This document shows positions 2,013-48,214 of a stretch of 64,000 bases of DNA, one piece after another. The notes beneath the pieces are model-generated. The model was not told the origin of the DNA, did no database searches, and saw only the letters and a program-made list of their open reading frames with translations. Position 1 is the first letter of the stretch, and each line of letters begins with the position of its first letter. The DNA is from Stylophora pistillata (lineage: Eukaryota). The stretch is taken from positions 401,218 to 465,217 of the forward strand of contig NW_019217858.1 of assembly GCF_002571385.2 (NCBI RefSeq), read 5' to 3'. The position numbers and the translations under genes are program-made.

Positions 2013-2063
2013 ATTTGTTCGAAAGACACGAAGAACAATCATGTTTCATTTTCAATGTTCGTT

Positions 2064-2069
2064 TTTATT
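2064..2069 (-). terminator. Polyadenylation signal AATAAA (distal)
   Basis: tttatt on the plus strand, TG-rich sequence about 25-40 nt downstream. Confidence 0.55.
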
Positions 2070-2114
2070 GACAATAAACTAAACCCCCCTAAAGTAAACA
2101 TAAAATTGGGATTT

Positions 2115-2179
2115 ACGTTCTTTTCATCAGAAGATAGAGCCGCGAGATGCTTTTTTCTGCCTTCATCATTTGCGAACGT
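2115..2179 (-). promoter_or_regulatory. Candidate eukaryotic SECIS element
   Basis: RNA 5'-ACGUUC GCAA AUGAU GAAGGCAGA AAAAA GCAUCUCGCGGC UCUAUCUUC UGAU GAAAA GAACGU-3': 6-bp helix I, internal loop, UGAU/UGAU non-Watson-Crick core, 9-position helix II (one C-A mismatch), unpaired A-run; fits AUGA-N11-AA-N24-GA. Confidence 0.55.
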
Positions 2180-2750
2180 TCCAGCACCGTGAGTTAAACA
2201 AAGCAATTAACCAAAAAGAAATTAACTGTCTCTAACAACTTAACCTAATGGATATATATCATTTGCCCTCTGGTGTGTTTTGGGGCTCAAATTGAAATCA
2301 TGTTTCCGTTTTTCTTCTTTTTGCAAGCATCGATAGCTAGCCGTCCCATAAACAAACAAACCTTAAATAATGTCATTCATCAATTGTAAAATTTCCTAAG
2401 AATTGAGGTAAAAAAGGCCAGAAATTCACCCGCGTCAGCTAGCCCAAAACTACTATATCACATATTTTTTATAACGTCTACTTTTCGAACATCGAGAACA
2501 AGGTTCTCACAAACAAATCATCGTCCACGTTAAGGCTTGCTCTGTTTATCAAAACGATGTGAACTTCTCAATAAAATAAAATTAACTTGTTATAAATTAT
2601 TAATACTTTGCGATAACGTGACCCAACCACTACATATATTTATTTAAGCATTCTCGAGGTACAATAAAGCAAGTTACAAATAGCGTGACTTTTGTACAGT
2701 TCCGTGGGCGAAGCTGAGCTTTCTACTGTACTGGCCTTTTCATGAACTGT

Positions 2751-3188
2751 CTGGAACGAAAGGAGACAAAAGAAAACTGTTAGTGAGATTCGCAATGAAC
2801 CACTGAAAAAAAAGAGCCACTTAATTTAAAGAGCCCACCTTAAACTTTATGCAAGCCAGCGACCTTAATTTCGTACTGCAACGATCTGAAAGCTAATTCA
2901 CTTAACTGAAACTGTGTGAAACCTTCCGCAACCAGGAATGACCAAAAGAATGGATAAAGTATAGTCTGCACTCGCGTCACGTGACTCATCCAGCGGAACC
3001 TTATCCCCGTTTCCTTAGCACGCAACGATTAGGGGTNNNNNNNNNNNNNNNNNNNNNNNNNNNNNNNNNNNNNNNNNNNNNNNNNNNNNNNNNNNNNNAT
3101 GGGAACCATGACGTCTCAGTTCTGTTCTCTGCTTCACTAAGTTTGTCTTGCAAAATTCCCACCTAAGCAAAGATCCATTTTTACTCAC
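2751..3188 (-). other. Predicted 3'UTR intron (contains the assembly gap)
   Basis: Donor AATG|GTGAGT 14 nt after the stop; branch CTCACTAAC plus polypyrimidine tract plus CAG acceptor at 2751-2753. Confidence 0.65.
3037..3098. other. Assembly gap (62 N)
   Basis: Run of N; left flank resembles a SINE fragment. Confidence 0.99.
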
Positions 3189-3202
3189 CATTCCTGTTTT
3201 CC

Positions 3203-3660
3203 TCAGCATTTGGTATGGAATGAGTTCTTTTTGCAGATGGTCTTTCCTTGACCAGCATCGCCGCGTGCGCAGAAGCACTCTTTGCATGCGTACTGATCTC
3301 GTTTGATTTGCTCCTTCCACGCACTTACACTGGCTTGTTGTAATGCTCCAAATTTATCTTTGTCATCTGATCCTAGGAATGGAAGGCCAAACACAGATCC
3401 TTGGGTGGACTTCATTAACGACACGTACTCGCCCTCAGGAAGGGTAGCTGTACCTAAACCAACCTCGGGTCGCTTTCTGTAATACACATTCCCTCTGAAG
3501 TTTTGTCCAATGACTTCGCCGCGGAACTTTCGGTATTTTCCAATTACGTTTAAGATGATGTCTTTAGATTCCAACATGCTGCCGATACTTTCGAGAGAAG
3601 CGAAGTCAGCCATTGGATGGCGATCAGTGCTTGTTAATAGCAGGAAGATCTTGGTGGCAG
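3203..3660 (-). CDS. Exon 19: VWA-like C-half plus Cys-rich terminus, stop TGA 3203-3205
   Basis: ttcccgcag acceptor; ATKIFLLLTS…LNVIG…CKECFC…C…C*. Confidence 0.85.
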
Positions 3661-6600
3661 CTGCGGGAAAACAAAATAAATTTTTACCGATGTCTCATTG
3701 TACAAACTTACACATCTAAAACATAGCCAGAAGTGCTTCACACGAAGTTTAAAGAAGTCCTCTCATAAAACTTTTGCGCAACATCGTTCTGGTACATTAA
3801 CGCACCAGAGGTGGAAAACGGAGGAAATTTCAAGTCAGCTTAGTAGCAGAGTGTGCAACAGAAATTTACGACTGAAAATCACCCATATCGCTTTATCCCA
3901 AATATGTAAATAAATGGGTTTTTTTTTTGTCTTTTCACTACAATGTTGAGGTGACGTCGATACTTGACCTCGCTAGAGACCTATAAGCCATGAATCAGTT
4001 AATTTCCTGCCCTCCTTTTTTTCACGAAAAAGTTATATTTTCGCATTTATCCTTGTTGTCTCTTTATTGCCACTCACCTGGTCTGAACGGATAATTATAG
4101 GCTGCGTAGGCCATAGCCTCCAAAGCATTACTACTGTCGTTGTCAGAATCTCCGTTGGAGAACTTCAGATGCTCAAACGCATCCTCGACGCTGTCAATAT
4201 CGTTCATCAGCTGACCGTCAAGGGTGATGGCGTGCGGGCCTTTGTGTGTCAAGCGACCACCGAATCCAACCACTCCAAAGCGGAAGGAGAACTTGGACTC
4301 ACCCAGGGACTCAGCCATGCTAGAGAGGAATGTCGGTATCTTCTCAGCATAGCTCTTGAGGATGGAGGTCTCAGGTACAAAAACAACAACATCTACAGCT
4401 TTGTCTGCTTTCTGGAACCATGTCTTACCGATCTTGTTAGCGCCGCAGCGTCCTAAGAAGATAAAGATTACATAAACGGGTCAGTTCAGTAAGAGATCTC
4501 CCAGGCTTTCCACGAAGGACATGCGTCCTTGTTAGTGTGTGCTAAGAAAATTCTCCTGAAGTTCAAGTTTTCTCAAATTTCTCGTTCGCAATTCGGGTTA
4601 GTCAACTCCATCCTTAGCAATTGTCGTTTTTTTTTTTTCCAATTATTTTTACTACTGTTCTGGTGAGATGTAATTTTTAGCTTACCTAACCGTAAAAGGT
4701 CGTCACAGAGAACGACCCATAATATTCTGATGAAGCTCCATTGGAAGTACAATCAATTCACTTACCGCACTCTGGCAGGTACTCAGCCCACATTCCTTTC
4801 ATTCTAACGAGTTCGATATAGGCAGCAGTTGAATTGCAGTGCTTCATGTCTTTGGGAGTGTTAGAGTCGCATTCTTTGTAATCTTGCTCGCAGGCCTTTA
4901 CGAAGGGTCCGGGGTTAACAACTGAGAAGAAGTGACTCAACGGGGAGTTCTTCTCCTTGAAAAGGGCGCGACATCGTTGTATGTAACTTGTTTTCTTGCA
5001 CTTGGGCTTTTCCGGCTCCTCCTCGAGTACTTTGCATTCTGGATCGTGAGAGATCTCCCAAGAGTTCACAAAATCGGTTAATCACTTCGCTGGGGTGTTG
5101 TTAATAGTCATCATCTCATCATGGAATTCATTGTTGTTTGTTCCGAGGAGACCTGAAGAAAGATTAATAAGAATAAGTGGGACAAAACTGACTCAACAAG
5201 AAAAAGGCCAGGGGTAGTTGACTTTTCCGGCAAAAAAGTATTATCGATTTCATTTGCAGTGTATTTGCAAGAAAATTATTACAGTGAATACAAATTGCTG
5301 GGACCATAAATTAGAAATCCATCCATATCGTACCTGCCATACGTCCATGGAACCACCTTGCAATGTTGAAAGTACACAAATAGTGCTCAACATCGCAAAC
5401 GATCTCCAAGCCCATGTCATGACGGAAAACGATGAAGGATCCTTGCCTTTGGACTGTGGTGTTGAAGCTCTCTACCGGAAGCTCGCTGTGATAACCGTCG
5501 GAGACTTTGTTTCCTGATGGAGATACCTTGACAATCGTCTCAACTCTACCGTCTTGATATATCTTCACGCTCGAGTCCTCCGTGAGAACGATGATGGCTG
5601 TTTCTTGACTAAGGATTGTGAACTTGTTGTCGCGGACATCTCTTGCTAAGACGTACATGCAGCCTGGCTTCCTGTAACCTGGGAATTTGTAGTAGGTGCC
5701 GTCGAACGTGTACACGTGGGGTCCACCAAAGATCATCGCCGTACCTTTTTGACACAAAGTGAACGTATCATTGGTAAGAGTAAAAAAAAGATGAAAAGGA
5801 TACAAAATCAACCTTAGTATAGTACGTAGCCTGCAACAAACATCACTTCATCCTCTAATTAACAGTTGATAAGAGTAGACGAGCCTATAATTTCGTGGAT
5901 TTTATCTAACTCTACCAAGTTTTCTTACTCAAACTACAAAGCAAGAGAAAGAAGAAACTCAAGGATAGAAGTAAAAGGAAGAATCGCTGATCAGATAGAT
6001 AAACGTCGTTCTCAAGGATCCAAATGAAAATATTAGAACAAGCTTCACACAATGAACTTACTGTTAAACGGTGGGATCCAATTAATTGGGTTCAGAGCAT
6101 AGGACATTTGCGACACTCGATGATTCATCCTTTTCTGCCAGTAGCGTTTAGCTCCGTGCAGGCTGCGGACGCGCGTGGAAATCATCTTCTTGGTGTGATA
6201 AAGGTACCTGTGGGCGTGGTTCAGATACAGGACAGTTTTTTCGTGCTGGATAATGGCCTCGTACAACGTCAAGGTGTAGTTTCTCAGCTCAGCATATCTT
6301 TGCGAGGTTAAGTTGTAAGCTTCACCATACAGTTCAAGGCACATCCTCATGGTCTGGTCGAAGGCAATCCGTGAGTAGTTCCTGACTTTACCGTATAGTT
6401 CTGGCAAACTACTTGAGTTGCACACATCGAGGGTGACATTTTGGACGACTCCATAGACACCGGCGGTGAAGTTTCGAGTCATGTTAAATCCTACACTGCA
6501 CCAATGACGCGTGAAATTCAGAGCTATTGGAAGGTATTTCTTCATCACGGTGGTGTTGTAAATGGCTTGAACAGTTCTATTGAACACACGTTGGTAGATC

Positions 6601-9600
6601 TTCATGGTTTTGTTCAAAGCAGAAACAGAGTAGTTCCTGGTCTGAGCCAGTGCCTCTTGGTACAGCTTGGCTGTCTTATTCAGTGCAATGGTTGAGTATT
6701 TCACGGCGTGGCCCAGTGCTGTGCTGTAAAGTTTGAGCGTCTCGTTGAAAGCTACTCTCGAATAATTCTTCGTCTTGCCGAAGGCTTCTACTAGACATGT
6801 GGAATTGTAGATATCGAGGGTTACATTTACAGCAACTTCATAAACCTCGACTGTAAAATTCTTGGTGATACCGTAACACTGACGGGAAAGGTTCAAAGCC
6901 ATTGGAATATACGTCTTCATGAAGGTTGTGTTGTAAACGACCAACACTGTTTTATTGTATAGACGATGACAAAGTCTCAGAGTCCTGTTCACAGCCACTG
7001 TTGAGTAGTTCCTGGCCATTAGCAACGCTTGTTGGTAGATCTTGACCGTCTTATTCAAAGCTAACATCGACAGATTCTTAGCTTTCAGCAATCCCTGTCG
7101 GTAGAGTTTGACCGTGTTGTTTACCGCCATCGTCGAGAAGTTCTTGGCATCGTGGAAAAGCTCGATTGTTTGGTTATAGGCTGTAGCTGAGCAATTACTA
7201 GCTTGACGTAGAGTTTTCCTGTAAAGCTTCACTGTAGCATTGATAGCGATCTTGGAATAGCTCATGGCTTTGCCCAAGGCCTCGGATGGGCAGCTTGAAT
7301 TTAAGATATCCAGCGTAACGTTCTGAGCGACTTTGTACACTTGCACGGATATATTAAGAGTGCGGTCCATGCAAACATTGTACCACTGGCGAGAAAGGTT
7401 CAATGCACGAGACACATATTTGTTAGTAGCATTGTAATAATGATGGGAAAGATTCAGCGCACGAGACAAGGTAACATTATAACAATGCCGGGACAAGTTC
7501 AGCGCACGTGAAAGGTATCTGTTGGTGACGTTGTAGCACTGGCGGGACAAATTCAAGGCACGTGATGCATATTGGCTGGTGACGTTCTTTACTAGGGTCA
7601 TGTTCAAACCACTTAAGAAGTTCCTTGTGATGTTGAAGTAATGCGCAGACTTGTGAAGGTATCTCACGGTCACGGGGTGATACCTGGTCCTCCTGTAAAT
7701 GTTACGTAAGAGCCTCACCATCTTGTGACGATAGACCGTTGCAAGTTTTCTGGAAATGTTGAGGTAATGGACAGTGGTATTTGCATACTTCTGGGTAAGA
7801 GGATGGTTCTTGCCCAGGTTGTAGGCGTTTATCACAAATCTGTACGTCTGCTGGCGGTAGAACACTGCAAGGTCCCTGGTAACATTGAGGAAGTGAAGGG
7901 TTATGTTGATGTATTTTTCTGTGAGATGATTCTTGGTTAAGTTGTAAACCTTCATGACATAGCCGTATGCTTTTTGCTGGTAGAACACGGTTTTGTTCAA
8001 AGTTACCGCCACCCATGCTTTACTGATGGTCTTGGCACGGCCCGACATAATTCTGGCCTTAACCTTAAGCTCAGTTAACTTTTCAACTGCGTTTTGTCTC
8101 AGCTCTCCATATTTGACAATAACATTCTGTTTCAGCTCATTGTACTTCTCAACTGCCATCTGTTTCAACATTGCGATCTTTACAGCAGATTGTTGTTTCA
8201 AAAGTCTTATCCTGTCTGGTACTTCCTGTTTCAGTTTCTCCATTTTTTCAAGAACTTCCCGTCTTATCGACTGAATCTTTATCACTCCGTTTTGCTTAAG
8301 CGACTCAATCTTTGCTAAGAACTGCTGTTTCAGCGCCTCAACCTTAACTGGGGTGGTCTCTCTGAGAAATTGCATCTTTACCAGGAAGTCCTGTTTTAAG
8401 ATCTTAATTTTTTCCACTGAGGCTAAAGCTAGGGTCTTGATCTTTCCGTCAAATCTCGGGATAACAACAGTGACACCATGTTCAGTAACCTGAATATACT
8501 TGGGAAGAGCCAAGCGGAAATCAGTGATGGTCTTGCCGATTGTTACACTGGCGTTACGGATGGCGATATAAGCATTTGTGATGGTCTTGTTGATTGCGAT
8601 ACGGGCGTTGCGTATGGACACCAGAGCTTTAGTGATGGTTCTGTTGACAGCCACATGGAAATCTTGGACAGTTTTGTTCATGGCAACACGGGTATCCAGG
8701 ATTTTCTTTGTGATGATGGAACGAGCAAAATGGACGGTCTTGTTGAGTCTGTGGGTTACATCTACGAACGTGGCGTTCAGATATCCAATAGTGCGGTTAA
8801 CATATCTCATAGTGGTGTTGACAAATTTTAGAGCTGTGAGCGTTGATGCCTTGATGAATCTTGGAGCATTAACAGTTTGGAGAGAGGAGTTTACAAATTC
8901 TATAGTCATCTGCACCTTCCCCCTAAGATACTGTCCATGCCTGTTGACAACGTCCATGGTGACGTTCCTCGTGAATTCCAAACTTCTACGCATTCTTGCT
9001 TTGACGGCATCGTCGATTCCATAGTACTTGGTGACGAAGGCAGCAGTTTCGATCACCTCTGCTCGTGTATCATTGAAGAACCTCAAGAGGGGTTTGGAAT
9101 TCAGTAGAGTTGAATTGATGGCAGCCATTGTTGTGTTCAAGGCACAGGCAAGGCGCGCCCTAGCGATGTTAAAAGTCTCCACTGTCAAGTTCACAGCCAA
9201 ACGGGTCATGTTCAAAGTGTAATTATAAGCACGAGTGCAAAGGACACGTCCCTTTAGAACAGACTCACGGAAGGTCATTTTGCCAAATGCACGAAGCACG
9301 GGACAAGAGTCGATGTCGAGTGCCACCTGGAAAGCTTGTCTACTCACATTAATTACCCTTTCTTTCAGGCCCATCACACTGTCCTTAAGTTCAAGAGCCG
9401 TCTTCGTGATGTTCCTCTGCAATATAGTTACTAGCTTGCTGTAATTGTGATACGCAGGTAGGACAGTGTCTTTGTAGAATGGCAGGACTTTGTTGAAGTA
9501 CAAAGGCTTAACTTCTTCTCTATAGTACCTCATACCTCTTTCCAGTTCTTGTCTGTAATACTTCATACCCTCCTGTAAGGTCCTGTTGATCCACACGCGG

Positions 9601-12600
9601 GTGAAAGTAACTGAAGCGGCAGTCCAGTTGCGGGAAATGGCAATTCCTCTCAAAGTCAAATTCTTACAGCGGCCGATGCAGTCCAGAGCCAAGGCTTTGT
9701 ACTTCTTAATCAACAAGGTGTAATTCCTGTGCAAGGAAACAAAGTGGCTGGCATAGATGCGCTCGTAATGGCCTTTGAGGATTACGGTATAATTCTTGAG
9801 ATGAGATGTCAGGATCGTTGTATAATTGCGAATTGTCGCATTAAGCATCCTTGTATAATTTTGGAATGTAGCGTTAAGGATCTTTGTGTAGTTCTGGAAT
9901 GTTGCATTTAACACATCTGTATAATTCTGTACAGTTACCTGGACAATCTTTGTGTAATTTTGAACTCTTTCTCTCAAGAACCTCGTGTAGTTTTGAACTT
10001 TAGCCTTCAAAATCCTGGTGTAATTCTCGACTTTCGCGGTGATGTTCCTGTAATAGACCTTTCCGATCGCCACAAACTTGCTCGTCATGTTCTTGGCTTC
10101 CAATGTCATATTTCTGATCTGTAGAGAGACATTTTTGGCCAGCTCGATGGTCTTGAACACAGAGTTGTGCTCAACGATTTCGCGGAGCTTCATGGTCTTG
10201 AAGTCTTCAAACTTCACGATCAAAGTTTGGCGTGTTTCTTGCATTTTAGTCTTAATCTTATCTGCCATTACTTCAGCCTTAGTTTTAAGATTTTCCATCA
10301 GTTCTTTGACCTTTTCCGATGCCAACTCGACGGCTTTTCCGAGGTTAACCGAAATGTTTTTGACGACTCCTCGACAACTTACAATCAGTTCCTGGTTCCG
10401 GAGGTCTTCAGTTAGTTCCTGCACGCGTTCGTGATGCACGATGCTTTCAATGGATGTACCTTTAATGGCAGTTTGAGCCTTAGCAAGAGCCTTTTCCAAT
10501 TGCATTTGGGGATCAGCCAATAGACTTTGGATCTCTTTCTTAATCTCATCATACCTGTTCTTCATCATAGCACATCTTCCCTTGATTTCAGCTGGAAGAG
10601 TTACGTTCAGATAAAAGATCGCCTCTTTCACTTTGGCTTCAACTTTGGGTTTCATCGCTTTCAGGAACTCCACGATTTCGTCATACCTCTCAAGAACAAA
10701 TTTTTCAACCATTACATAACGTTGTTTCAGCTGGTGTTTCTGGATAAGCCTCTGGACGTCTTCAAGGGCCATGAATTTTGTATAGCTCTTTCTCAGCTGC
10801 TGCCGTGTTTCGTTCAACAGCTCTAGCGTTTGGTTGAGAGCAAGCGAAGTGATATTTGCAGCTTTTTCGAGGAGTGGAAGAGAGATGTTCTTGGCCTTTA
10901 TAAGGTAGAAGACGGTCTTATTCGCCATAACCTTCACATAAGGATGGAAGATAGCAACAAGCTCTTTCGCAGTAATGAATGTGATGTTAGCGGTTTGGTT
11001 GTAAAGAGCGATTGCCTCTCCAGTAATGTTGATCACAGTCTTGTTCAGTTTGTGCAGCTCCTTCTTCCACTCTTCAAACTTAGCTGTGAATCTTACTTTG
11101 GCATCGTTAATCTTCTCCCTGATCCTATCCTCAACAATCTCTTTGAACTCTTCATATTTGTTCGCTAAGAACACTCTGTTCTCGAGGAACTTGCGTTCTG
11201 CGAGATCGAAAGCTTCGAAATAGAGCTCCTCGAGGGTCTTCTCTTTGTTCTCACTATACCACTTTTTCATAGCTTGAGCGGTTGACTGAACGAAATACAC
11301 AGCCCCATCAGCATACCTCAGAACTAGGACCTTTCCTTGAATGAAGTTGGCCTTAACCAAGGGGACGACAGTTAGGTTTATGTAACGAATTCCTTGAAGC
11401 ACCAGAGCCCTGGTCTTGTTGTAGGCTTGAATAGTAATATTCCGTGTCACATTGTAGACATGTAGGGTGAGGTTGCGTGCCAGATTGGAGTGCTTCAATA
11501 AGTACTGAAGACTCAAGTTGCGTGTGAGATTGTAGTACTGAAGGGAGTAGTTTCGGCCCATGTTGTAGTAGTGAATAGTCAGGTTTAGAGTTGCATTGTA
11601 GTACTGCAAGACCATCATCTTAGTGCGATTGACCAGGACCAAAGTCAGGTTCAGTGCTCTTAGAGTTACATTCTTGGTTTCGTTGTAGAATTTTATCGCA
11701 ATCACAGTGGCATTCTCGTAAAGCTTCAGAGCATGGGCAGTAACATTCTTGTAGACTTGGACTGCATGTAACGTGAAATTACTGTAGAGCTGCCTTGCAC
11801 GTAAGGTGGCATTTTTGTACAGTCGAAGTCCATGTGCTGTGAAATTATTGTATAGTCGCACTGCATGGAAAGTTGCGTTCCCGTAGAATTGAAGAGCATG
11901 AGTAGAAATGTTGCTGTATAGGTTCAGTGCGGGTACGGTTATATTACTGTAGATGGCCAGCCCATGCTTACTTAAGAACTCGTAACTCTTCGTAACTATC
12001 TCCTCATAAGTCATGTTCTCGAGCTTTCTAGCCTTGGTGATCAGGACATTCAATTCACTCAACAGCTTCTCCCGTTGAATTCCGATACCTTGGATGACAT
12101 TTGCTTTAAAGTCTTCATATATTTTTAATAGGAGATTCTTGTAAAGGGTATACAGCCTAAGTCCTTCTTGCTGGTGTTCATTGTACAGCACCAAACTGTG
12201 TTTCTTCAAGATGTTATAAGCTGCGAGGGTCCTGTTGACCGTGATGTTTCTGTAGAGGCATGCCATTTCATACGAAACATTTCGCAATTTACTTTCCCAG
12301 TGAAGGCTTGTATTCTTGGCCATGATTCCATACTTGGTGAAAACTCGCCTACTTTCCTTGGCAAGGGAAATCACTTCCTTCACAAATACTTCTCTTGAAA
12401 CTTTCATGTTGACGAGATCAGTTGCTAGGGTCAAAACACGATTGGCAAGATTCAAGATGTCTCTCAGCTCTTTCTCAATTTTCAGCGAGGCATTTCCAAT
12501 GAAGTCTCTCACAAGAAGTGCTCTTTCTTTGATGTTGAATGCTCGAATGAACTCCACTAGTTGTTTCCACTTGGCTGTAATTTGCAAAGCTTCCAATTTA

Positions 12601-15600
12601 GCTATGACGTCCATTTTGGCCCATGCCGCTTTGATCTTGCCAGAAACATCGATTGCACGCAACTGTTTGATAATGTTTAAGACTTCTGCTGTGACATTTT
12701 TGGCAATCATTTGCAGTTTTTCGATGGAGAGGTTCACAAGTTCATCAGGACGCATCTTCAGAAGCTTTTGCAAGGTTTTGTTCAGAATCATTGCCGAACT
12801 ATTGTAAACCAGAATAGCCCTTCGGCTCAGGTTAAGTCCCAGGCTAAGTGACTCGTTTAAAATCATCTTTGACAGATTGAAGAACTTCATGCCCTTTTCA
12901 ATAGTCAAATCCAAGATCTCTTCAGCTGACTTTTGTGAGTTGTGGCGGATAAAAGCAATCAGAGCCGATATGTTAGTGTAAACGGTGTGGTTAACTAATT
13001 TTAGTGCCTCGGACGCGATGTTCAAGGAAACAAGAACAGCCTTATCCATGACTTGGCCAATAGGAACACGTCGGATAGTGATGTTGCGTACTTTGTACAT
13101 TACCTCGAATGCCTGTGGAATAAGGGGTTTGACAACTGGTTCCAAATATTTAGTAACATTGTTCTTTACGTCAAGAGTGAAATTGCGCACTTGATGGACA
13201 ATCCTAAGTACAATAGGGTAGGCTTTTCTTTCGAATGAAATGGAAACGTCCTTCGCAAACTTAATGAGAGGGAAGCGAGTCTGTAGATCTGAGTAGGCAG
13301 TTAGAATGACCTTCCTAACCTGGATGGTAATGTTTCTGAATTCTTTTGTCAAGTTCTTGGCCAGATGGATAGCTTGAAGGGTGACATTCGTCATCAGCTT
13401 GGGCAGAATCCTTGTCAAATTGTTTGTGAAATTCAGCGCTGTTTGACGCAATAGACAGGCTTTCTTAAAGAGGACCTCTACTTTAGGTCGTAGGGTCTTG
13501 TTAAGCTGTTCGAAATTCTGCAGGAAAGTCTTATTCAGCAGCTTGAAATGCTCCTCGATCGTCTTGTTGAAAACGGTAATGTTGCGAACGCTTGTTGTCA
13601 GGTTCTTTGCAAAGATTGTTACATTCCTAAGTGAACAGGATGCATTGAAGTTGCAAGTGAACTTTTTCATCTCAAGCATGTACTGGTCATAAATGGGGCC
13701 AAGCTTTTTCCCGCGCAATTCAACTTCTCTAAGCCTCACAATTAGCTCGCGAGTTTTGATCTGTACTCTCTCCACGAGTTGCGCGGTTATAATTTGAACC
13801 CTTTGGGAAACACGCTTGGCAATATCACCAACCCTTTCTCCACGCACCATTACTGAATTCGCCATGAGGGATAGATTTTTGGCCCAGCCTTGTAGATCCC
13901 GGCTGATATTCTGGAGATGGATGGTTATATTTCCAATTATGGGAGGAAGCACCTCTCTACGGAGCCGTCTATATGCAACCGTGGCATTCTGGTGAATCGT
14001 ATTGTAAAACTCCGAGGCATTACCGATGATGTGTGTAAAGTTGGCGCTACCAATCATTCTTGTAAGGTTGTTGATAGTATTGTTCAGTGACCTCAGAGTG
14101 ATGTTCAAAAGTCGGAGTGACATGTTGTGAGCCACGCTTGTAATATTCTGCATCAATCCCTTGTAGTTGTAAGTCTTGTATTCAGCGTAAATCTTAAGAA
14201 CGGTAGGCTTGATCTTAGCTTCCAACTTCTTGACAAGCCCTTCGACCTCCTTAGTCAGGTTTTTCGTCATTAGGACAGTCAGGTTGTAGAACCTCACGGT
14301 CACATTCCTGAGTAGGGTCTTAAACACTTGGGCTTGGTTCACCAGAGTAGCTACGGCTGAAGTATTCCACGTGAACGAAATAAGACTAGCCTCAGAATTC
14401 AGGATGTACATCAACCGTGATTCATTTGCTACATTTTCTCCAAGTTTGCGTTGGATCGTAACCTGAAGGCGATTGGCGTTCGGCATTTCTCCCACCACTT
14501 GTCCAGAGATACGAGGCGTGACAGTAACATTAAAAACGATGCTTCTTGAGGCTGGGTTAAATTTAATGAACCATCCTACCTTGTTGTTCTGGTAGCTTAC
14601 AAACGTGCTGGCGACATAGTTCTTCCAGTCAAACCTTCCGGTGAAACCAGCGGTACGATTGAACGCAGAGAAGGTCAAGAAAAGGGACCTCGTTTCGGTG
14701 TCTAGCTTTTCAGTCAAGGTCAGCGTTTGCTTGAAGATGGTTAAGCCTGAGGTGAAGGTCTTAGTGAGTTTATCGTAGTCACAGACAACCCGAAGTGATT
14801 TCTCAAAACCTTTCAAATTGACAGCTATTCCCATGTCGTCCATACTCTTCCAGTTAGCCTCAAAATCCACTGGTGTTCCAGGCAAAACATCTACAGAAAT
14901 TGCTAGTTTTCGGTCTTCTTCAATAAAATCGATCATGTGGTTCCATGTCCTCTTAAAGGCTGAAATCTCCGTTGTGAAGTACAGGCCGCGGTCTTGAGTA
15001 AAGACTCCTCTCACCGTCAGGGGATAAACGGGGAAAATTTCAAAGTGACCTTCATAGTTCCCTGTTTTCCTGTTGAGGTCAAATTGATTTTCGATTTTCT
15101 TGCCAAGAACATCCAAGACGCTGTTGAATGAAAAGCCATTATTCCTGTTCCAGGTAGTCGTCCACGTAAAAGGTTTGCTTGGAATCAATTCCACTCTGAG
15201 ATTTACTGATTTGCGTTGCTTGTACCAAATTAGGGACTGAGTGACCGTTTTGTCGGGCTGATACTCGACGACAAGAGTGTTGGAAAGTTCCTTAGAAGTG
15301 TTTCTGAAAACTCCTGTCACCGAAACTTTCTTGCCTTTAGAATAAATCACAGCGAACCTGCCTTCATGATAAGAATCCTCGGTGTTAGAGTAGTTGTAAT
15401 AAGAAGCATCCCAGCCATGCTCGAAGGAGTAGCCCATCGCTCTAAGATTGTACTGATACCCAAGTTCGTGAGTCTTGTCGGTCTTGGTATAGATCAGTTT
15501 TGCGCTATCTAGGAAAATGCTTTGGCTTCCATTTCGGAGCATGCGGAACGTTAGAAGCTCTTTTACACCAGGTCTCTGGGTGACGTATGCACCTTCCCAT

Positions 15601-18600
15601 TCAGCGACAAAGCGGCCAAGCTGTGCACGATATTGAAGTACCTTACGTTGAGTGTTATTCAAGAACATCAAAGATGATTTCGCTAGAGTAGATTTGTTCC
15701 AAAATAAGTGAACGGCTGCTTCTTTTAGGATCTTTCCATTAAGCCAAACTCCCTCAAAGCCAACATGCTTCTTTAAAACTGTGGCGTTGAATCCAATTGC
15801 TTTCTCGCTGCCATTGCGGAAGTAAAAGGTAGCATCAGCGGATCTGTTCACGATTGTTGTGTTAAAATGAATGCTTTTCAGCTCCGTTGGGTGCATGTAG
15901 CTCATCCAGGATTCAAAGAAAACTGTCTTGTTGAACTTGGCAGTTAAGCGGTTAGCAGTTTCTGTTGGGTTCTTAAACCATTGCGTCTTCAGTTCACCCG
16001 TTCTATTAAGGACCGTCAAGTTTAGAGACATACTCTTCTCCACCGAGCTGTTTGAGAAAACAGCGCAGATTTTCCCATGCGACCGACCAAGGTATTCAGG
16101 ATAAATGCAAGCAGTTTTCTGGGAAGTCAGATTCTTAAAGAATCCGACAAGAGCGACACTGTAATTTTGATAGGCAGCTTGGAGGATGACTTTCTTGTTT
16201 GTCCCCAGTAAGAAGACTTTGCTCAACAGGCTGACGGATTTGTTACAGGAGCTCACGTTTAGAAGCACTCCCAAGTTGGATGGATTACGAAAGTAAACAA
16301 AAGTAGTATTCAAGGTCTTGTTCTTGACTGCAACATTAAACTTGAGTCCCTTTTCGGCCTCAGAGTTCAAAAGCGTCCAGATAGCCTCCATGCTTTGGTT
16401 AACAACTGACGCATTGAACTTGATGGATAGCTCATTCTCATTCTTCAAGTAACTCCATACAGCTTCCACTGTTTTGTTCAAGGTCGAGGCATGGAACTTG
16501 ATGGATCTTTCTTTTTCATCTCTGTAATAACTCCAGGCAGCCTCTACGGTTCTGTTCATTACTGAGGCATTGAACTTGAAAGAATCTTGATGATCGCTCT
16601 TTCTGAGACTCCAGATGGCCTCAACGGTCCTATTGGAGGCGGCCGCATGGAATTTGATCGCTCTCTCGTCATCGCTCCTTACGTAACTCCAGGTGGCTTC
16701 CACAGTTTTGTTCATAGCCGAAGCATTGAACTTTATGGAATGTGCATATTCACCCCGAAGATAGCTCCAGACAGCTTTTACAGTTTTGTTCGAGGTGCAA
16801 GCATGAAATTTAATGGCACGTTCCTCTCCAATCTTCACAAAACTCGAACCAACTTCAATGGTTTTGTTCATGGCGGAAGCGTTGAATTTGATAGATCTCT
16901 GTTTCCCGTCAAAAGTGTAACTGAAGATAGTCTCAGCAGTTCTGTTGAATCCAGTAGCATTGAATTTTATGAACTTCTCATTGGTGAGGTTAACGAAGGT
17001 CCATGCTGTCTCTACCGTCTTGTTCATAGCAGATACGTTGAACTTTAAACTCCTCTCTCTGGCGAAATTCAAGAACGATAAGGTTGTTTCAAGAGTGTTA
17101 TTTAGGCAGTTAGCTTTAAACTTCAATCCCTTTTCACTTGTCAAGTTGAAGAAAGTCCAGGAGGCCTCGACAGTTTTGTTGAGTGCACTGCCTGAGAACA
17201 GCAAACTCTTCTCAGTTCTTAAATTGACGAGAGTCCACGTGGATTTTACGTTCTTATTGGCAAGACTGGCGTCCAATTTCAGATTTTTCTGTTTGTCCGT
17301 ACTTAGCAAGGTCCATGTGGCGTTCATCGTTTTGTTCAGGGCGCTTGCGTTGAAAATTAACTTCTTTTCATTGGGAAAGTCAAGGAAAGTCCAGGACGAG
17401 TTGATGGTCTGGTTTTCTGCGCTGGCTTTAAACTTCAAACTCTTTTCGTTTGCAAGGTTAAGGAAGATCCATGCGGCATCGATCGTCTTGTTAAGAGCAC
17501 TTGCTTTAAAGTTCAAACTCTTTTTGTCTTTCACGCTTGCAAAGATCCAGGAAGAAGCGATGCTCTTGTTGAAAGCAATTGCCTGGAATTTCACGCTCTT
17601 TTCATTTTGCATGTTCAGGAAAGTCAAGGAGGAGTTCATCGTCCTATTTCCACAATGAGACTCAAATCTTAAGGTCTTCTCGGGTCCCAAGTTTAAGAAG
17701 GTCCAAGTAGCATTGTAATTCTTCTTTCCACAGCTTGCGTTGAACTTTAAGCTCTTCTGATGTTCTAAATTCAAGAAGGTCCAGAAGGAATTGATCGTCT
17801 TGTTTCCAAAACTAGCATTGAACTTCAAACTCTTCTCATTTCTCAAGTTAACTAAGGTCCATGTGGCATTGACGGTTTTATTCAGAGCGGCGGCCTCGAA
17901 CTCCAAACTCCTTGCTGTATGGCGGTTGATGACAGTCCAACTTGCCCGGGCTGTTCTGTTGAGGGCGGAAACATTGAAACGTACTCCCTTTCTGTCGCCG
18001 AAATGAAAGTATGACCATATGATCTCGGCCGTCTTGTTCAGGGCAGTGACATTCATTCGTAGTTCTTTCTCTTTCCCTACATTTACGTATGTCCACATAG
18101 CCTCCAGAGTCTTATTCAGAGCCGTCGCGTTGAACTTAATGCTCTTTTCTTGTGTTAAATTATGGAAGGTTAAAACACTTTGGATGGTGTGATTCAATGC
18201 CAAGACTTTAAGTCGCATTCCTTTCTCTGTGGTGAGGTTGACGTACGACCATACCGCCTCGATGGTCTTGTTAAGGGCTGTTGCATTAAACTTCAAGCTC
18301 TGATCATTTGTTAGATTGAGGTACGTTAAGGCTGCCTCCAAGGTCTTGTTCAGGCCAGTAGCATTAAATCGAAGCCCTTGTTCTTGCCCAGCGTTGACGT
18401 ATGACCAAACGGCGTCGACGGACTGGTTAAGGAGGAGTCCCTGAAACTTGACTGCTTTACTTTGTGTCAGATTCAGATACGACCAGACAGCTTCTGCTTT
18501 ACTTCCAAGCACAGTGCCATTTATTTTTAAGGACCTTTCATTGGTCGAGTTGACAATACCTGTGTACCAGCTGATTACACGGTTTTTGTTTTCATGGGTT

Positions 18601-21600
18601 CCAGTGAATTGAATACCTTTCTCTTGCCCAGCCTCGAGATATGATCCACGAAGGGTAAAGGACTGCTGACATGGACGAGCAAACAGGCGGAGGACGCCTT
18701 CTTTCTGAGCTTTGAGATGTCTTCCTGTAAGCTCGATTCCCGCCTTTGTTGGCTTGTTGCTAAAGCTGAAAACAAAATCGTCTTCTTCCTCTCCAAGTTT
18801 TCCATTGAAGCTGATCTTGGTTTGGGTGCAAGTATGATTTGCTAGGAAACTGATGCTCTTCTTTGGGACATTAACTTCTCCAGTTGAAAACATGTACTTG
18901 CCTGGCCAGTAGGTCAAGTTACTGACATATCCATACGCATTTGAATGGTTGTAGAGCTTAGTCAACTGTGTGATGGTGTAATTGCTATATGAAGCGGACA
19001 ACTGGAAACCCATATCTCGATAAGGGCTGTCCACCCCCGAGTTGTTGAAAAAGTGACCATTAACAACGATTGGGTGTCCATAAACAGCGTCCTTTCCAGA
19101 ATACGTGAGATTCACCGCGTGCGTTTTGTTGTTGTAAGTTGCTTTGAACTTGCCAAAATTTAAGCCAAGAGCAGCAGTAGACACACTGAAAAGTTTGCCA
19201 TCCTTTTTAAACCACATAGTTCCATTTGCCTCCAGGTTTCGCTCCCACGTTGCTCCAGGTGTGGAAATTACAGCAATCACATCATATTTGTTATCGTCTT
19301 CAGTTTGCAAGCGTTCTGCTATCAACTGATATTTAGTGAGCTTAGGGTCTGTGCGTGTCATTGAAATACTGAAGGAAGATGGACCAGAAAATGGGAAGTA
19401 CGGTGACTCGTAGTCACGGTAAGCCAAAGGCACAGACAGCTGACTGCAGAACGTAAGTCCAAGTACACGTGTCAAGTTCAGGCAAGGTGCAGGCTGTTGG
19501 AAAGATGAAAACAGGAGTTTTACAATGTGATGAAAAGTTAAAGGGAAATGACAAACCTAGTAATGCATATTAACAATTTCAAAATATTGCTTTTTCTTTA
19601 TTTTTTGGGCGTAAAAGTTTTCCTTAACTCTTACAACAAAAAAATAACTCCTAAATTTTGTCGGATTAAGCTCTACTTCCGGGTAACACATTTTATTTCT
19701 ATCTTATTTCTTAAGAGAGTTCCATCCTACCAGCTGTAGCTTTGCTTTGTTCTAAGCATGTCATGCATCGTCTTAAATAAGTAACAATGCATTAGACTCT
19801 GTCCTTAAATGCTTACCTCAATCCTTCTCGGCGCCCCTTCAATAGCTAATTTCTCGTCGTTGAGAGTAACGAAAAGTGATGACCTACGAGAAAATGAACC
19901 CTTTCAGCCCCAAGAGTGACAAGCATCTAATTTCTGCTCATAGTAATACAGCCGAGTCATTCGTCAAGATCATGAGAATGTAGGAGATGATTGCCAATCC
20001 ATAGAACTTTGATTGGAAAACAAATTCTCCTTGCCAGTTCCAAAAGAAATGTGTAGTTTAGAGGTATAGGGAACATGCATACTGATGTTAAGGTTGTAAA
20101 GGGTTAAAAAAGACTTATCATGTAACACCACAATCATCATTAAGTAAGACTGTGTTTCCTACCACAATGATGGCATCATGAAATGGAAAGATGTCAATAG
20201 AAAAGAAAAGCTTTACTTACGATACGTTGACAAACTGAACAGGTTCCTCTGGGACACCCAGTTCAAATTTCAAGATTTCTCCTTGCGCATATGATGCATT
20301 TCCCTTGAGGTGTGTTACAGTGTACAATGAGGAATTGACAAGGACGCCAGCTTCGGCATACACTGCGCTCACTCCCATACGACCACTCACGTCCACAATA
20401 GCACTACAAAACAAAAATGCCATCGACAAGTGAGACGCGGTTTAGGAAAAAAGACCGCACAATGGGCAACACTGCTGTAAGGCAGATGAACGGTTCCCTC
20501 GACTCCCTGGAAAATCTAATCAATCCTTCATTCTTCAGCTTCCCTTCGTTGTTAACTATGACAACGATGGAGCAAATCCGAAAAAGTTATATATTCATAT
20601 ATAAATACATAAAAACTAAGATCAACCCCTTTAGCGATCGCGCCTTAAATAGCTTGTTAGGAGATTTAAGTAAACATCTTAAGGGTGCAATGCCAGTCCG
20701 TATTTTGTTTTGTCACTCACTTATTTTATCATGTTTTTGGGGAGACTTTACAAAATTACCACTTCAAGTGGACACTTAAATATATTTTAATTTAAGTTTC
20801 ATGTGAGCGAAGGTTTAACATGTCACGAATATGATGCGAGAATCTTTTAAACTTGCTGATTACCAGGCCGATACTAATGATAATCGGTAAAAAAAAAACT
20901 CATCCACTTTAAATCTGATTTAAAACTCAACTTGTCTTTATACAAACACTGCACACTGTCCTCAATTATTTTACCTGGGTTTGACATGCCCACGTATATC
21001 AAAACGCATCTTTCCCCAAAACATGTTCCTGATGTCAAACTTCCCGGCGAGTTCCACTGAGGCCACAGTGGTTCCCTTGGCGCTCATTTTAAGCGGAAGA
21101 CCAAGGATGGTTGGGACAGTAGTCTTAGCGTCCAGGAACATCATGCTTTTACTGAAGCTCTTCTTGCCTCCCTTAGCTAAAGCAATCAAGATGTCGATCA
21201 CGTTGATTTTGTCCACTTCGTCATTCAACCAGCTAATGTCGTCAAAGCTGAGAAGTCTCAATTCGTTACCAAACATTTTCACAGAAACAGCCCCAGATGG
21301 GTGATGCTTACGGTTGTCCATCTACAAAGAAGTAACGAAATATGAATTCTTTGAAATGAAAAATCCAAGGTTTTTTCAGGCTTTAGACAAGATGTCGTTA
21401 ACAAACGAAGATGAATAACGAAACGTGACAAAAACTGATCGATTTTATTGACAAAAATTTAATTCAGTGCACTGGAACACAATCATGAAAGAAAAGAAAA
21501 ATTTAAAAAGGGGTTAAAAATGAGAAATCTGACATATGAATTTAAGATCTAGTCAATCTCCAAGCTATCATCTAAGATCACACTTTGTTGAAAGTTTTTT

Positions 21601-24600
21601 TTGGTATTATTTCATATGATTGTACACGTCCTAATAGGATGAAACTGACAGGCAAGTTATGTATTATTAACATCAACAAACACCCTGCAAATAATCACAT
21701 CGTGTTTAGTTCCTGTAGCTTTTTCCTCATTTTCACTTTCTACTAATGACAACATTATTCCAAAACGTTCTCTTCAATCAGTCTCTCTCGATTATTGTTA
21801 ACCATAAAAAAACCACAACTGTGGCCACATACCCAGTCGCAGCGAAAACCACTCTGCGTACAAACTTACCATATGGTGCAATTTGTTTAAATGATTTTCC
21901 ACCTTGTTCAAGTCCTCGTTCAAGCTCCTCTTTTGTTTGAGTTTCCAGGTCTTCACAGTTTTCTCCTCCTTATCCCTCTCCTCGTGAGGCTTCAGGTTGA
22001 ACATCTGCATGATGCGATCGTCAGGGAAATAACCGTCTTCTCCGAAAAACTGCTCGATAAGAATCTCGAACCCTTCGAAGCGTGCGCCTGCCTCCAGGAC
22101 ATTGATGGATGTTCCGAGGACGTCGACGGTAACGTTAACCATGGCACTGCGTGGGAAGAAACTGGTCGGATGATAAATAAGGTGGCTCTGAGCTGATCCA
22201 CCGAACCTCAGGACATCTGTTAAATGTGAACACAAGAAAATTGAAATTGTGTTTTGTCACTAAAGTTTTGAGAACCTTCATCCTTATTCCGCTGCAACAC
22301 CTGAAATCGAGTTAGCTTGGAGAATTTGGCTTTCAAAAAACTTACATTAACCTAATTGATATTCTTCTCTCTTTTCGTCAATTGTCTTCTTAATATTGTA
22401 TTGCTCTTGTGAAAGAGGAATTATGTCTACCCCACTCGTGCAAATTGATCTTACCGCTGTAAAATGAGCCTTCCCAAGCACGTGAAAACCTTAATCTGTT
22501 CAGGTTGAACTCTCGTAGCTTCATTCCATTGAGGGCGTCTTTCATCATTTCAGCTTGAGGCAGACCATGAACTGGCTCTGTGGAGTCCATGGCGTTAGTC
22601 ATGTGGGACCAAACAAAAGAACCAACTTGATTGTTCACTTCATTCTTCAGGATTTCGGCGATGCTCCTGAACACCTCTGGACTTGGGCACTTTGTGAGGG
22701 CAAGATAAGCTGCGATACGGATTTCAACATCCACGTTAAATTCGCCATAGATCTGCAAGACCTGGTCTGTCATCTTCTTACTGCAAGGCAAGCGACGAAG
22801 GGCCTCAAGTGCTGCGATGCTCATGTTCACGGGTGCTTCTAAGTTCCAGGCACAATTGAGTAAGACATTTTCAGCTTTTAAAGGTCGACCAGCGTTTCCT
22901 ATGGCCTTCAGGGTGATGATAAAGTTCTCAAAATCTTCCGGTGTTTTGCCCTTGCATTCTTGACCCAGACGGGACAAGAAGAAGTTTTCAGCCTTTGTAA
23001 TGGGGTTTTCTGGATCCTGAAAAGAAAATTGATAATATCAGAAATCTTTTATGAAAGCCTTTTGATACTACTACTGATAACAATAATAATTATTATGATT
23101 AGTGATAATGATGATGATGATAATGATAGTTATACTATTACTAAGGAAAATTACATTATCGATAATAATGACGATTGTCGTGATAATGACAACTATTGTT
23201 TTCATGGCGTTAAATCCACGTAAATACTATCATCTTATGCGCGCTTTAAGGTGAAGTGTTTCAATAACAATTTAAGTCTCAGCAAAGTTTAAATACAGAA
23301 GGAAAAAACAAGGACTACCATGTTTAACTTGAAAAATAACCAAACATTCGTATTTTGCATGTGCTAATCTAAGAATACACATTTTGAGGGATACTCTACA
23401 ACTTAACCTTTACCCCTCAACTCCCACGATCCACTTAATAACTCCTCCTACTCACTGCCATACTTTTCCTTGTAAATTACACAGGAGAGTATAGCCTTAT
23501 TCCAAAATAACGGCCTCTAGCTGAAAAGCTTTTCTCTTCTCATAACCTTTTTACAAGACAACTTATTGGAATTGGAAGGAGATGTTACATGCTAATCTTT
23601 TAAAGCTTTTATCAGACTGGTACAGTATCGTTACCTTTACCTGATCATTACATTCCTGTGGCTTGCTTTCGCAAACTATGTGAATGAGTGTTCCAAGAGT
23701 CAACATGGCGGTTCTTCCAGGGTTCTCCTCACACAGCTCTAACACGTGCTCGACTGTCTCCTTTGTGGGATTTCCTGCCATAGCCAATCCAGCGAGAAAC
23801 ATGTTACCACGCTCATGGTTGACCAGCTTCTTCCTGATGGCATTGCTCATTACTTTTGCGCATCCTCCTGTACCACAGTGAGGCAGAGCATCGTAGAAGT
23901 ATTCGCTAAAAGAGAGAAAAAGGAACGTAACATCAGTAAAGGAAATCTCATGTTCTATGCGTGGATAACTAAGGGTTCACACAATCAAAAATTTTCTAAA
24001 CCGCTGTCTTCGACTTTCGCATCAAGTTAGCTGAAATTGACTATGCTGTTGTTTACTATGTTACAAAATAAAAAGTAAGAAATTGCTTCTAATCCTGTGA
24101 ATTTGGAGGATATTCAACTATATTTTTTCTGATATTTGATATATGATTGGTGGTGCGCGATTACTCCAACAAAATTCGCCGAAAAGCACTTTCATGTGAC
24201 ATTTTTTTCTCGTGTAACGACATTGCCAAAACTTCAATATCAAGCCTGTGGACAGTGTTTCTACGTAGAGAAAAAAATTTCACTTACCGCATTTTAGGAT
24301 CTTCTTCGTTATGGATTTTCTGCCACAAAGTTTCCATGGCTGGCGTGCTAAGCTTGCGGATGCTAAACACAAGGTTAGAGAAGTGCTGGGCCGACTCGGG
24401 CTTTGTTGACTGTTTCGACTCCTTACTTAGGCGGCTTGCCCAGTAAAATGCATCCGTAATAGCTTCCTGGTTAGACTGGGGCTGAGCATGGGCATACCTC
24501 AGTGAAACTGGGCGAAGTCTCTCTAAAAATGTAACAAAAATACTATGTTTAGAAAGTAAGACCTGAAGTCCAAATTTCAAGTATATGTTTAACTTTTTCA

Positions 24601-43143: not shown

Positions 43144-43219
43144 ACATTATTGACTTACAAGTGATTCGAAACCAAAGGGGATTTACGTAAGTATCGCCGT
43201 TAATCATAAGGTATTTGAC

Positions 43220-43537
43220 CATAGGCAGACCACACTATGTGTTCGTGGTTAATAACTGTTGACTCCGAAAATAAACAAATCTATGAGGGTTACGAATAAG
43301 GCTCTGAAAATTGTACATCTAAAATACATCACGGTCCGTAAATAGACGGACGGCCCACGAGGACGAAAAATTACCACAAAAGATTCGATCAATATTTCAT
43401 TTAACTTTAGCAAGATGTTCAGACAGAGACATAATTTCCATATGCAATTTTCAGAGCTTTATTTATAGTTCTCATAGAGTTTGTTCGTCTCATGTCAAAC
43501 ATTATTCACCACGAACACATAGCGTGGTCTGCCTGTG
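43220..43537. mobile_element. MITE with ~45-bp TIRs, P-superfamily-like ends
   Basis: cataggcagaccacactatgtgttcgtgg / ccacgaacacatagcgtggtctgcctgtg; flanks atttgac / atctgac. Confidence 0.75.
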
Positions 43538-44881
43538 ATCTGACCAAAACACTAAGGATACTCACGAGTACCACTCGTTGACCGGTACGTCCGGAACGGC
43601 CGGTCGCCTCTAGCATATGATGTAGATTTTTCCCATGTTCCGTGCTACTTTAGAGACATTTCATCCGCTGAGGAAGATAAGGTATCTCTGACCTGCAACT
43701 TTCAGGAGAGTGGAACCATGCACTAGGTGAGGGCGCAGAGCGAGATACGCGCGGGGAAAATAAGGGAAAAAATTTCGCGATAATTTTTTTTTACACCTCA
43801 CTCCTCCCCCTCTTGCTCACTTCCTGCTTGCCTTCGCTCGCCTGAAAACCGCCAAATAAATGACCCCAGCTCTGCAGGCTGAGGGTTCCTAACAAGTTTC
43901 ACGAACAACCAAGCTAGGAACTGAAAAACACCCAGTACGGCTTGGCTTGAAAATTCCTCGTCTAGTCCTTTAGACGACAAACCTTGACTTTCGAAGCAGA
44001 AAGCCCTCTTGAGTTGTTTAACGTTTTCTTGGAGCAGACGAAACCTTATTAAATCAAGTGGAGAAGTAACCTTATTTACCATAATGTCGGGATTTCATCA
44101 TAGACTCTCGTCATCGTCATTAAAATAGTTGTGTGAATTTGGCCATGAAAACTATTACACTTTGTACCCTGGTTTCCATGTACTTTATTCTCATCACGTG
44201 TCTACTTGACTATTTTTGGAAGTGTTAGCAGAAATTACAAAGTAATAGCTAAAACGATCGAGCTTTTAATTAAAGAGTAAGCTCTGCAAATGACGCTCTA
44301 CTGAGATTTTACTTCTGTTGAAGGAAAATTTAGGCTTTCTATGACACTTTTTGGTATATTGTCTTCTTTATTGTCGCTTATTGTCTTAAGCAACCAGAGA
44401 AAATGCTGTCCATCTGACTATAAAGGTGACAGTAACTCGGCTTGACAACATAAAAACTTTTAGAAATCTACTGACGAAATTAAAAATAGACAACAGGAGA
44501 CTCAGGGAGAAAATATCCTGTAAAATTGGTTACATAACAACAAAGTAAACACCAAGTAGTATGGGGCGTTCCCAAGGTACTACCCTTTTCCATAAATTAA
44601 CGAGCTGCAACTTTCAAATTTCCTAGTTATAAATACAGTGCGGGAAATGAAAAGCAGAGATGGTCTACAAGTACAGCCACCTTGAAAGAATTAAAAAGGT
44701 GCAAACCGTTCTCGTATTAAAAGGAAAAAAAAAACAGCAGTTCTTCCCTAATCGAGAATTCAACATGTGATTAACCCTAAACGAACTCGAGGAGGGATGG
44801 AATTAAGAATGTAATTTCCAGGAAATTACTGTAGAGAAATCAACTTGAACCAAAGCAATTGCTTTCTCCACTAGTAAACAG

Positions 44882-47637: not shown

Positions 47638-48214
47638 CATGGTATTTGCATTTATATTCCAAGCGTTACGATTACGATGTTCCTAAAATGATGCTGAATG
47701 AACTATACTTTCACTTTTAACAACTTTTTGTTTTAATTTTCTGGTATAAAAGAATCTAAAACTTTTTAGGTTTCCAAATGAAAGGTGGTGATACCATAGA
47801 TTTTCCATGGGTCATATGCAATATTATTGGAATTTGGAGAGTCACGCGGCACACAAAGTTTGCCTTTTACAAAAACTGCCATTAATCCTGATGAGACCAC
47901 AAGGACTACAGACCCTTTGCTCAGTTGGACAAAGAAACCTGAAGGAGGCATCGACAAGCCGAGGACTAAGGAAAAATTGATATGGAGGACGTCAAAACAA
48001 TCAACTTGAAAATTACATAACTAATTTACATACTAAACTTTTCAAGAAGCAGAACATGTCGATTCTCTTTGCAGGAGACCCTGTCTAGACCACCTAAATA
48101 AATGAACTCGATATTGACAGAATCCTGAGAGATAAATTTCACGTGTTATCGAACACTTAGAAGTCTCTCAGTCTCTATTTGTGGATTAAAGATACGAACA
48201 GCTTGAAAATCGTT

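Follow-up and report, generated by a model that had tools for sequence, protein, structure and literature searches.

The 64,000-nucleotide stretch of Stylophora pistillata DNA analysed here (the window) is intron-containing animal DNA with a minus-strand hairpin that the initial annotation described as a SECIS-like kink-turn in a 3'UTR, which raises the question of whether this hairpin is a working SECIS and, if so, which gene and which UGA it would serve. We give an even chance to the reading that it is a real type-2 SECIS, which, judging from the sequence, would provide a large lipoprotein with a tail of 5 or 14 residues containing one or two selenocysteines (Sec). The likelihoods attached to this and to all other readings are matters of judgement and are not computed. 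The features on which the argument draws are collected in Table 1.

Table 1. Features of the hairpin, of the preceding gene and of the gene end, in window coordinates
Feature	Position	Strand	Evidence or remark
Candidate type-2 SECIS element (whole)	2115..2179	-	pattern, covariance model, fold, shuffles
Helix I, 5' strand; pairs with 2120-2115, 6 bp	2174..2179	-	fold, pair probabilities 0.72-1.0
5' core: conserved A (2169) and UGAU half (2168-2165) of the non-Watson-Crick quartet	2165..2169	-	
Helix II, 5' strand; pairs with 2138-2130, 8/9 positions paired, first pairs G-C and A-U	2156..2164	-	fold
Unpaired apical A-run, five A, 11-15 nt past AUGA	2151..2155	-	
GC mini-helix (helix III), 2 bp, 2150-2149 / 2143-2142, 5-nt loop	2142..2150	-	fold, probability 0.79
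3' half of the quartet, UGAU	2126..2129	-	
Distal AATAAA, 45 nt past the SECIS	2064..2069	-	putative poly(A) signal
Proximal AATAAA, upstream of the SECIS	2639..2644	-	putative poly(A) signal
Last exon (3' end approximate)	2050..2750	-	junction supported by Oculina model P0019
Intron, starting 14 nt past the terminal UGA; GTGAGT donor at 3188, polypyrimidine-CAG acceptor	2751..3188	-	
62-N assembly gap within the 3' intron	3037-3098		
14 exonic nt past the UGA: four codons and TG	3189..3202	-	equal length in relatives
Terminal UGA directly after the family's last Cys (C-UGA-G)	3203..3205	-	candidate Sec codon
Last coding exon: C-terminal half of the vWA domain and five-Cys beta-hairpin tail	3206..3660	-	
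Internal in-frame TGA ahead of the C8 domain	5082..5084	-	K/R/N/G in homologues
Apolipophorin-like large lipid transfer protein gene (5' end approximate)	3203..30800	-	Vitellogenin_N, open beta-sheet, DUF1081, 4,500-aa exon, VWD, C8, vWA

An inspection of the sequence confirms each SECIS element that had been named, at its proposed minus-strand position, with an internal loop of 5+5 nt between the helices. The core has the AUGAN / NGAN form of a type-2 SECIS, in which the tandem G.A and A.G are left unpaired under Watson-Crick rules, and the sequence determinants of SBP2 recognition, as matched here from the available text of PMC1874613, are all present: the U.U above the tandem, the purine-pyrimidine pairs G-C and A-U that follow it, and the large internal loop. 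The unpaired AA that lies 11-13 nt above the core in type-2 elements is found (p2 = 11 in the strict pattern), as is a helix III, which has only 2 bp. Helix II, which the initial annotation placed at the short end of the normal range, is present and short, but it is not fully paired, with 8 pairs over 9 positions, including one G-U, and one C.A mismatch.

The unconstrained minimum-free-energy fold of the 65-mer is exactly the SECIS shape with the core unpaired (-13.6 kcal/mol), and the mean pair probabilities in this fold are 0.95 for helix I, 0.96 for helix II and 0.79 for the mini-helix. The shape is also that of lowest energy when short flanks are included; with at least 30 nt of flank on both sides, however, alternative folds are favoured by 1.5-2.8 kcal/mol and the probability of helix II is often below 0.2, in an energy model that ignores the kink-turn energy. 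The stability of the hairpin is ordinary, as 84 of 200 shuffles are equally stable in one comparison (z -0.14) and 187 of 1,000 in another (z -0.84).

The SECISearch patterns, re-implemented from supplement S1 of PMC3753652, match the two strands of the 64-kb window 7 times in the strict form, 11 times in the default form and 34 times in the loose form, and the hairpin belongs to all three sets. When a SECIS-shaped free fold, which is a criterion of the present analysis, is added to the published strict pattern, one of the seven matches is retained, namely the hairpin; in 20,000 dinucleotide-shuffled versions of the 700-nt exon, the strict pattern occurs in 889 and the combination in 11. A second strict-pattern match lies in the same UTR at 2521 on the minus strand, and its free fold is not SECIS-shaped. 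Additionally, the filter of SECISearch3 (supplement S4 of PMC3753652: helix II of 7-15 bp, little bending, apical loop of 8-30 nt, energy below -4 kcal/mol) was applied by hand, and the hairpin lies within every limit, with a stem of 9, an apical loop of 17, a bending of 0 and the energy given above. The hand-computed score on the published grading is 3.0, which corresponds to grade A or B depending on the Covels score. An ad hoc SECIS descriptor gives one match over both strands, against 23 in 5,000 UTR shuffles and one in 30 shuffled windows; this descriptor was composed after the element had been seen, and weight is given to the published pattern instead.

The covariance model is less favourable. 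The initial annotation had proposed the Rfam SECIS models as a check, and SECIS_1 (RF00031) matches the hairpin over its full length (model positions 1-64 of 64) with 21.2 bits, which falls short of the gathering score of 35; the whole window yields no match to Rfam at the gathering threshold. The E-value is 0.45 over 4,227 families and about 1e-4 for the SECIS_1 model alone. Among the 8 Rfam matches in the surrounding 1.5 kb, it ranks third by score, behind two unrelated families, and it is the sole match of its model among the 10 listed for positions 1-21,000. A match to snoMe18S-C1367 at 2294-2391 on the minus strand scores above it with 27.1 bits (cut-off 101) and is probably a chance product of AU-rich sequence. 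The SECIS interpretation is thus partly supported: anatomy, strand, 3'UTR location, published pattern and filter agree with it, but two of the refuting conditions named in the initial annotation, a poor covariance score and a competing fold, are in part realised, through the sub-threshold score and the rival folds that appear with longer flanks.

These figures bear on the possibility that the hairpin is a chance look-alike, namely that an AU-rich UTR hairpin fits the SECIS model by accident, that the UGA after the conserved terminal Cys is an ordinary stop and that the internal TGA has an independent origin, as a nonsense allele or an error of the assembly, which we consider quite possible, if doubtful. 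The sub-threshold score, the ordinary stability and the seven strict-pattern matches in the window all agree with it. The chance rate of such a SECIS_1 score, about 2.5e-5 per 700-nt UTR, corresponds to some 0.6 genes per genome if 25,000 genes with UTRs of 700 nt are assumed, and the false-positive rates in Table 1 of PMC3753652 lie between 0.06 per Mb, for Infernal at 20 bits with another model, and 2.66 per Mb, for the strict pattern. This reading nevertheless needs several coincidences in one gene, as the best SECIS shape of the window falls on the sense strand and ahead of a poly(A) signal; the properties of the UGA that further oppose it are described below.

The same core can also be read as a kink-turn of box C/D type, similar to a snoRNA, in which AUGAUGA and CUGA, which we take to be the box C and box D motifs, are closed by a terminal stem. 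Both motifs are literally present, but the location is the last exon rather than an intron, the boxes are only about 30 nt apart and the sequence between them, where a guide would be expected, pairs with itself. No snoRNA family occurs among the Rfam matches listed at the coordinates of the hairpin. In place of the 3-nt bulge of a box C/D kink-turn there is the large 5+5 internal loop, which favours SBP2 over Snu13p/15.5K according to the available text of PMC1874613, and we regard this assignment as highly improbable.

The gene to which the hairpin would belong encodes a large lipid transfer protein (LLTP) similar to apolipophorin. Of its ten exon pieces, six match Vitellogenin_N, open beta-sheet or DUF1081, one matches VWD, one matches C8 below the cut-off and two have no match, so that Vitellogenin_N, the open beta-sheet, DUF1081 and VWD are all represented. 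Over residues 25-330, the large exon matches the Stylophora pistillata Apolipophorin of NCBI (P0017) with 100% identity. This single exon of about 13.4 kb and some 4,480 codons (19496-6048, minus strand), which encodes repeated beta-strand and amphipathic-helix-like segments, we would liken to the giant exon of apoB. A vWA domain follows C8 with an E-value of 9.9e-5, just under the Pfam cut-off; a fold search also returns vWA domains and, together with an AlphaFold model with a pLDDT of 83.8, supports this fold, while neither provides disulfide geometry. The six Cys of the terminal unit could all be paired, leaving no free partner, which would count against the preferred reading. The host protein has no redox fold, and catalysis is unlikely. 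No other coding frame is found between the gene and the hairpin, and bacterial and archaeal genomes, scanned both at the protein level and for the SECIS motif in case they contained host DNA as contamination, give no match. In the 31-64 kb part of the window, the only Pfam match among 30 frames scanned is a MADF DNA-binding domain in a plus-strand frame at 45385-45657 (E 1.1e-5), perhaps a transposon remnant; in addition, a segment of about 205 bp is duplicated in tandem at 48177-48585 with 76% identity, and one of about 110 bp is repeated in inverted orientation at 43217-43540 (75%).

That the hairpin lies on the sense strand of a 3'UTR, as initially proposed, is borne out by the structure of the gene end, in which the exon 2750-c.2050 is spliced to the last coding exon of the apolipophorin-like gene. 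Since the intron contains the 62-N gap, this linkage called for support, which comes from two gene models that NCBI has on one contig for the Oculina patagonica orthologue. They differ in their ends: P0035 stops at the last Cys, whereas P0019 (KAL9951489.1) continues in the +1 frame, and its final residues are those of the +1 frame of the window over the 3189/2750 junction, up to the stop. Only one of the 161 AG sites in the next 3 kb reproduces this ending, and with an acceptor at 2746 the Oculina model is not matched. The last exon is therefore part of this gene, whose 3' intron is conserved. The GenBank model P0019 itself ends in the wrong frame, and the RefSeq model P0035 has the ending of the family. 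The spliced distance from the terminal UGA to the SECIS is 595 nt, which exceeds the minimum spacing of 51-111 nt given in the available text of PMC3753652. The two AATAAA signals on either side of the hairpin may permit mRNAs with and without the SECIS. Just past the distal signal, at 1515-2013, a unit of about 98 bp is repeated in tandem as a minisatellite of five diverged copies.

The initial annotation mentioned a UGA that it did not name, and the conspicuous in-frame one, at 5084-5082, is not conserved as a Sec site. The exon that contains it is otherwise intact and is 67-77% identical to coral orthologues over its length; 24 proteins match this exon, 6 of which do not span the TGA site, and the 18 that do have Asn (13), Lys (2), Arg (2) or Gly (1), with neither Cys nor a stop in any of them. 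On the preferred reading, it is taken as a nonsense allele or an assembly error. It truncates the NCBI models P0017 and P0033, and P0071 is annotated as a separate gene; the internal TGA thus accounts for the splitting of the gene in public S. pistillata models (PFX28884.1 and PFX28885.1, with XP_022785263.1 truncated). Alternatively, the internal TGA may be tolerated through read-through, which leads to another account of the hairpin: a real SECIS that is recent or a passenger, derived for example from a SECIS-bearing transposon, would support no selected Sec, and incidental read-through could make the internal TGA tolerable by placing Sec at a variable surface position. The joint occurrence of a SECIS-like element and a TGA in frame within a gene that is otherwise intact, and whose exons past the TGA retain 71-83% identity to Oculina, and the variability of the position (K/R/N/G) are in line with this account, as is the occurrence of SECIS elements within Sec-coding Naiad retroelements, which the available text of PMC8557442 proposes as SECIS donors. 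The Naiads reported there as coding for Sec come, however, from clams and spiders and not from cnidarians, and the window contains only one copy of the element, with no repeat overlapping 2115..2179. Moreover, a single-base error or a heterozygous null is a simpler account of the TGA, and the conserved tail described below is left unexplained, which makes a passenger element distinctly unlikely.

The plausible target of the preferred type-2 SECIS is not the internal UGA but the terminal one, at 3205-3203. Among the proteins with the C-terminal Cys module, 101 of 112 end at the last Cys, among them one protein of the nemertean Lineus and twelve named proteins of anthozoans; many of the 101 are near-duplicates, and the proportion among distinct tails is 42 of 48. 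A stop at this position is therefore the family norm. The remaining endings are K-R-E-N (six), an added Ala (one), a different ending (one) and a read-on with Trp (three); P0019 and P0012, which lack the Cys motif, are outside this count. No Cys is found at the UGA position (+1) in any of the 112 proteins, and no residue U in any of 178. Neither the terminal UGA nor the internal one (0 of 18) is thus aligned to Cys or Sec in homologues, which places the gene in no known selenoprotein family. The prevalence of endings at Cys and the lack of any extension with Cys are also in line with the chance reading, under which the intron 14 nt past a true stop would be compatible with escape from decay. 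Under the 50-nt rule, an intron close behind a stop is compatible with such escape. Two further sequences, P0006 and P0009, look like the same exon translated after a wholesale C-to-T change (bisulfite-type reads) and are presumably database artefacts rather than homologues.

The three proteins that read on with Trp (P0074, P0096 and P0178), which are 79-89% identical over the aligned end, carry the tail W-G-[KE]-Q-[EG]-W-W-V, which corresponds to TGA, four codons and the same donor, with divergence beginning in the intron. Since the proteins that cluster with them end at Cys, the Trp in these records is best taken as a TGA decoded with table 4; as a sample the records are biased, since only TGA stops can appear in this way. 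The stop of Oculina, obtained by intersecting the two gene models in different frames, is TGA as well and is free of this bias, so that a TGA is known in Oculina and, with the bias noted, in the three read-through records. In the shifted-frame comparison of Oculina with the window, 8 of 9 codons are identical from the UGA on over the junction and 8 of 13 before it, and the sole differing codon would allow the read-through frame to keep Lys through a synonymous change. Conservation past the stop is hence no lower than in the coding sequence that precedes it, which, together with the Cys-UGA-Gly context and the TGA kept in Oculina, argues against a look-alike arising by chance. The tail past the UGA is four codons without an indel in the four relatives; it is short, adjoins a splice site, which its conservation may reflect, and also shows the non-synonymous changes K/E and E/G. 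Beyond it, base 2750 completes a second in-frame UGA over the splice junction, five codons past the terminal one, where the Oculina codon is compatible with TGA or CGA, and the first non-UGA stop is the TAG at 2725-2723. Among the matches listed in a relaxed tblastn of protein tails against the UTR, only read-through or frameshifted tails occur, none of them over the SECIS.

The preferred reading is based on the anatomy of the hairpin, its place in the last exon of the gene, and the TGA and conserved short tail in four other sequences; binding of SBP2, Sec insertion, poly(A) site use and the role of the tail are the steps that we infer from them. The hairpin would work as the type-2 SECIS of the coral apolipophorin-like mRNA, with SBP2 binding the G.A/A.G kink-turn core and recruiting the Sec machinery, and the UGA past the last Cys would be read as Sec part of the time. 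The product would be the usual lipoprotein of about 6,000 residues with a short tail beginning Cys-Sec-Gly, made alongside the ordinary form that ends at Cys. Termination at the second UGA, the one formed at the splice junction, would give a tail of 5 residues, and continuation to the TAG one of 14 residues with two Sec. At low selenium, or if the SECIS is removed through use of the proximal poly(A) site, the protein would end at the ancestral Cys. As the host lacks a redox fold, the most economical role for the tail would be selenium carriage on a secreted, receptor-internalised lipoprotein; such a carrier may also explain the absence of Cys homologues, because Cys cannot carry selenium.

In a broader form, which we hold to be somewhat unlikely, stony corals and perhaps other anthozoans would have gained a SECIS and come to read through the ancestral stop of their apolipophorin-like lipoprotein, which would thereby have become a selenium carrier; with up to two Sec it would deliver selenium together with lipid through lipoprotein receptors, as a convergent stand-in for selenoprotein P. 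In this form, without a Cys homologue, it would be invisible to searches based on Sec/Cys alignment, and the choice of poly(A) site would act as a switch. If the preferred reading is true, this is a new, non-redox selenoprotein family on a large lipid transfer protein, formed by stop-codon extension and not by exchange of Cys for Sec. It would also be a candidate selenium-delivery system in corals, relevant to antioxidant capacity. It is rare for a new selenoprotein family to be found in animals, and surveys are generally confined to homologues of known families, a limitation stated in the available text of PMC13134290. Table 1 of PMC3473315 has no LLTP among its 21 invertebrate selenoprotein families. 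In the openly accessible literature searched, no report of a Sec-containing apolipophorin, vitellogenin or LLTP was found, and the sole paper found with both "apolipophorin" and "selenocysteine" is, from the text available, an ant venom proteome.

A comparison with known systems reveals both similarities and differences. The hairpin resembles the type 2 SECIS of Rfam (RF00031, SECIS_1) in its AUGA core, the G.A/A.G tandem with the flanking U.U, the two helices, the apical AA, the mini-helix and the 3'UTR location, but it differs in its score below the gathering value, in its short helix II (8 pairs in 9) and in a host that is not a known selenoprotein family. The host shares Vitellogenin_N, the open beta-sheet, DUF1081, VWD and C8 with apolipophorin and apoB-like LLTPs, consistent with its NCBI name Apolipophorin, and unlike the others has an extra C-terminal vWA domain and a five-Cys tail. 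Selenoprotein S (SelS) and thioredoxin reductase have Sec near the C-terminus, as proposed for the coral protein. The Cys-Sec-Gly tripeptide of the coral tail is, as we see it, reminiscent of thioredoxin reductase. Both are, however, redox proteins with a non-UGA stop right after Sec-Gly, whereas four or more residues follow in the coral protein, and no proximal stem-loop resembling an SRE is found past either coral UGA (z +0.27, +0.37 and -0.84). For a UGA near the terminus that is closely followed by a splice donor, together with an isoform lacking the SECIS, human SelS offers a precedent: according to the available text of PMC3628699, a splice donor lies within the first 22 nt of its 3'UTR, and through this and a variant that lacks the SECIS the UGA acts as stop or as Sec. 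Selenoprotein P (SELENOP), which is absent from the Nematostella list of one survey (PMC3473315, section 5 and Table 1), resembles the proposed product in being secreted with C-terminal Sec that carries selenium, and its uptake proceeds via the lipoprotein receptors ApoER2, megalin and LRP1 (available text of PMC8193087); the analogy is functional only, and no homology is claimed. With ten Sec, two SECIS and a UxxC site, SELENOP differs from the coral gene, which has one candidate SECIS and at most two terminal UGAs for a protein of about 6,000 residues. SECIS elements are thus of a known kind, and a large lipid transfer protein as their host would be new.
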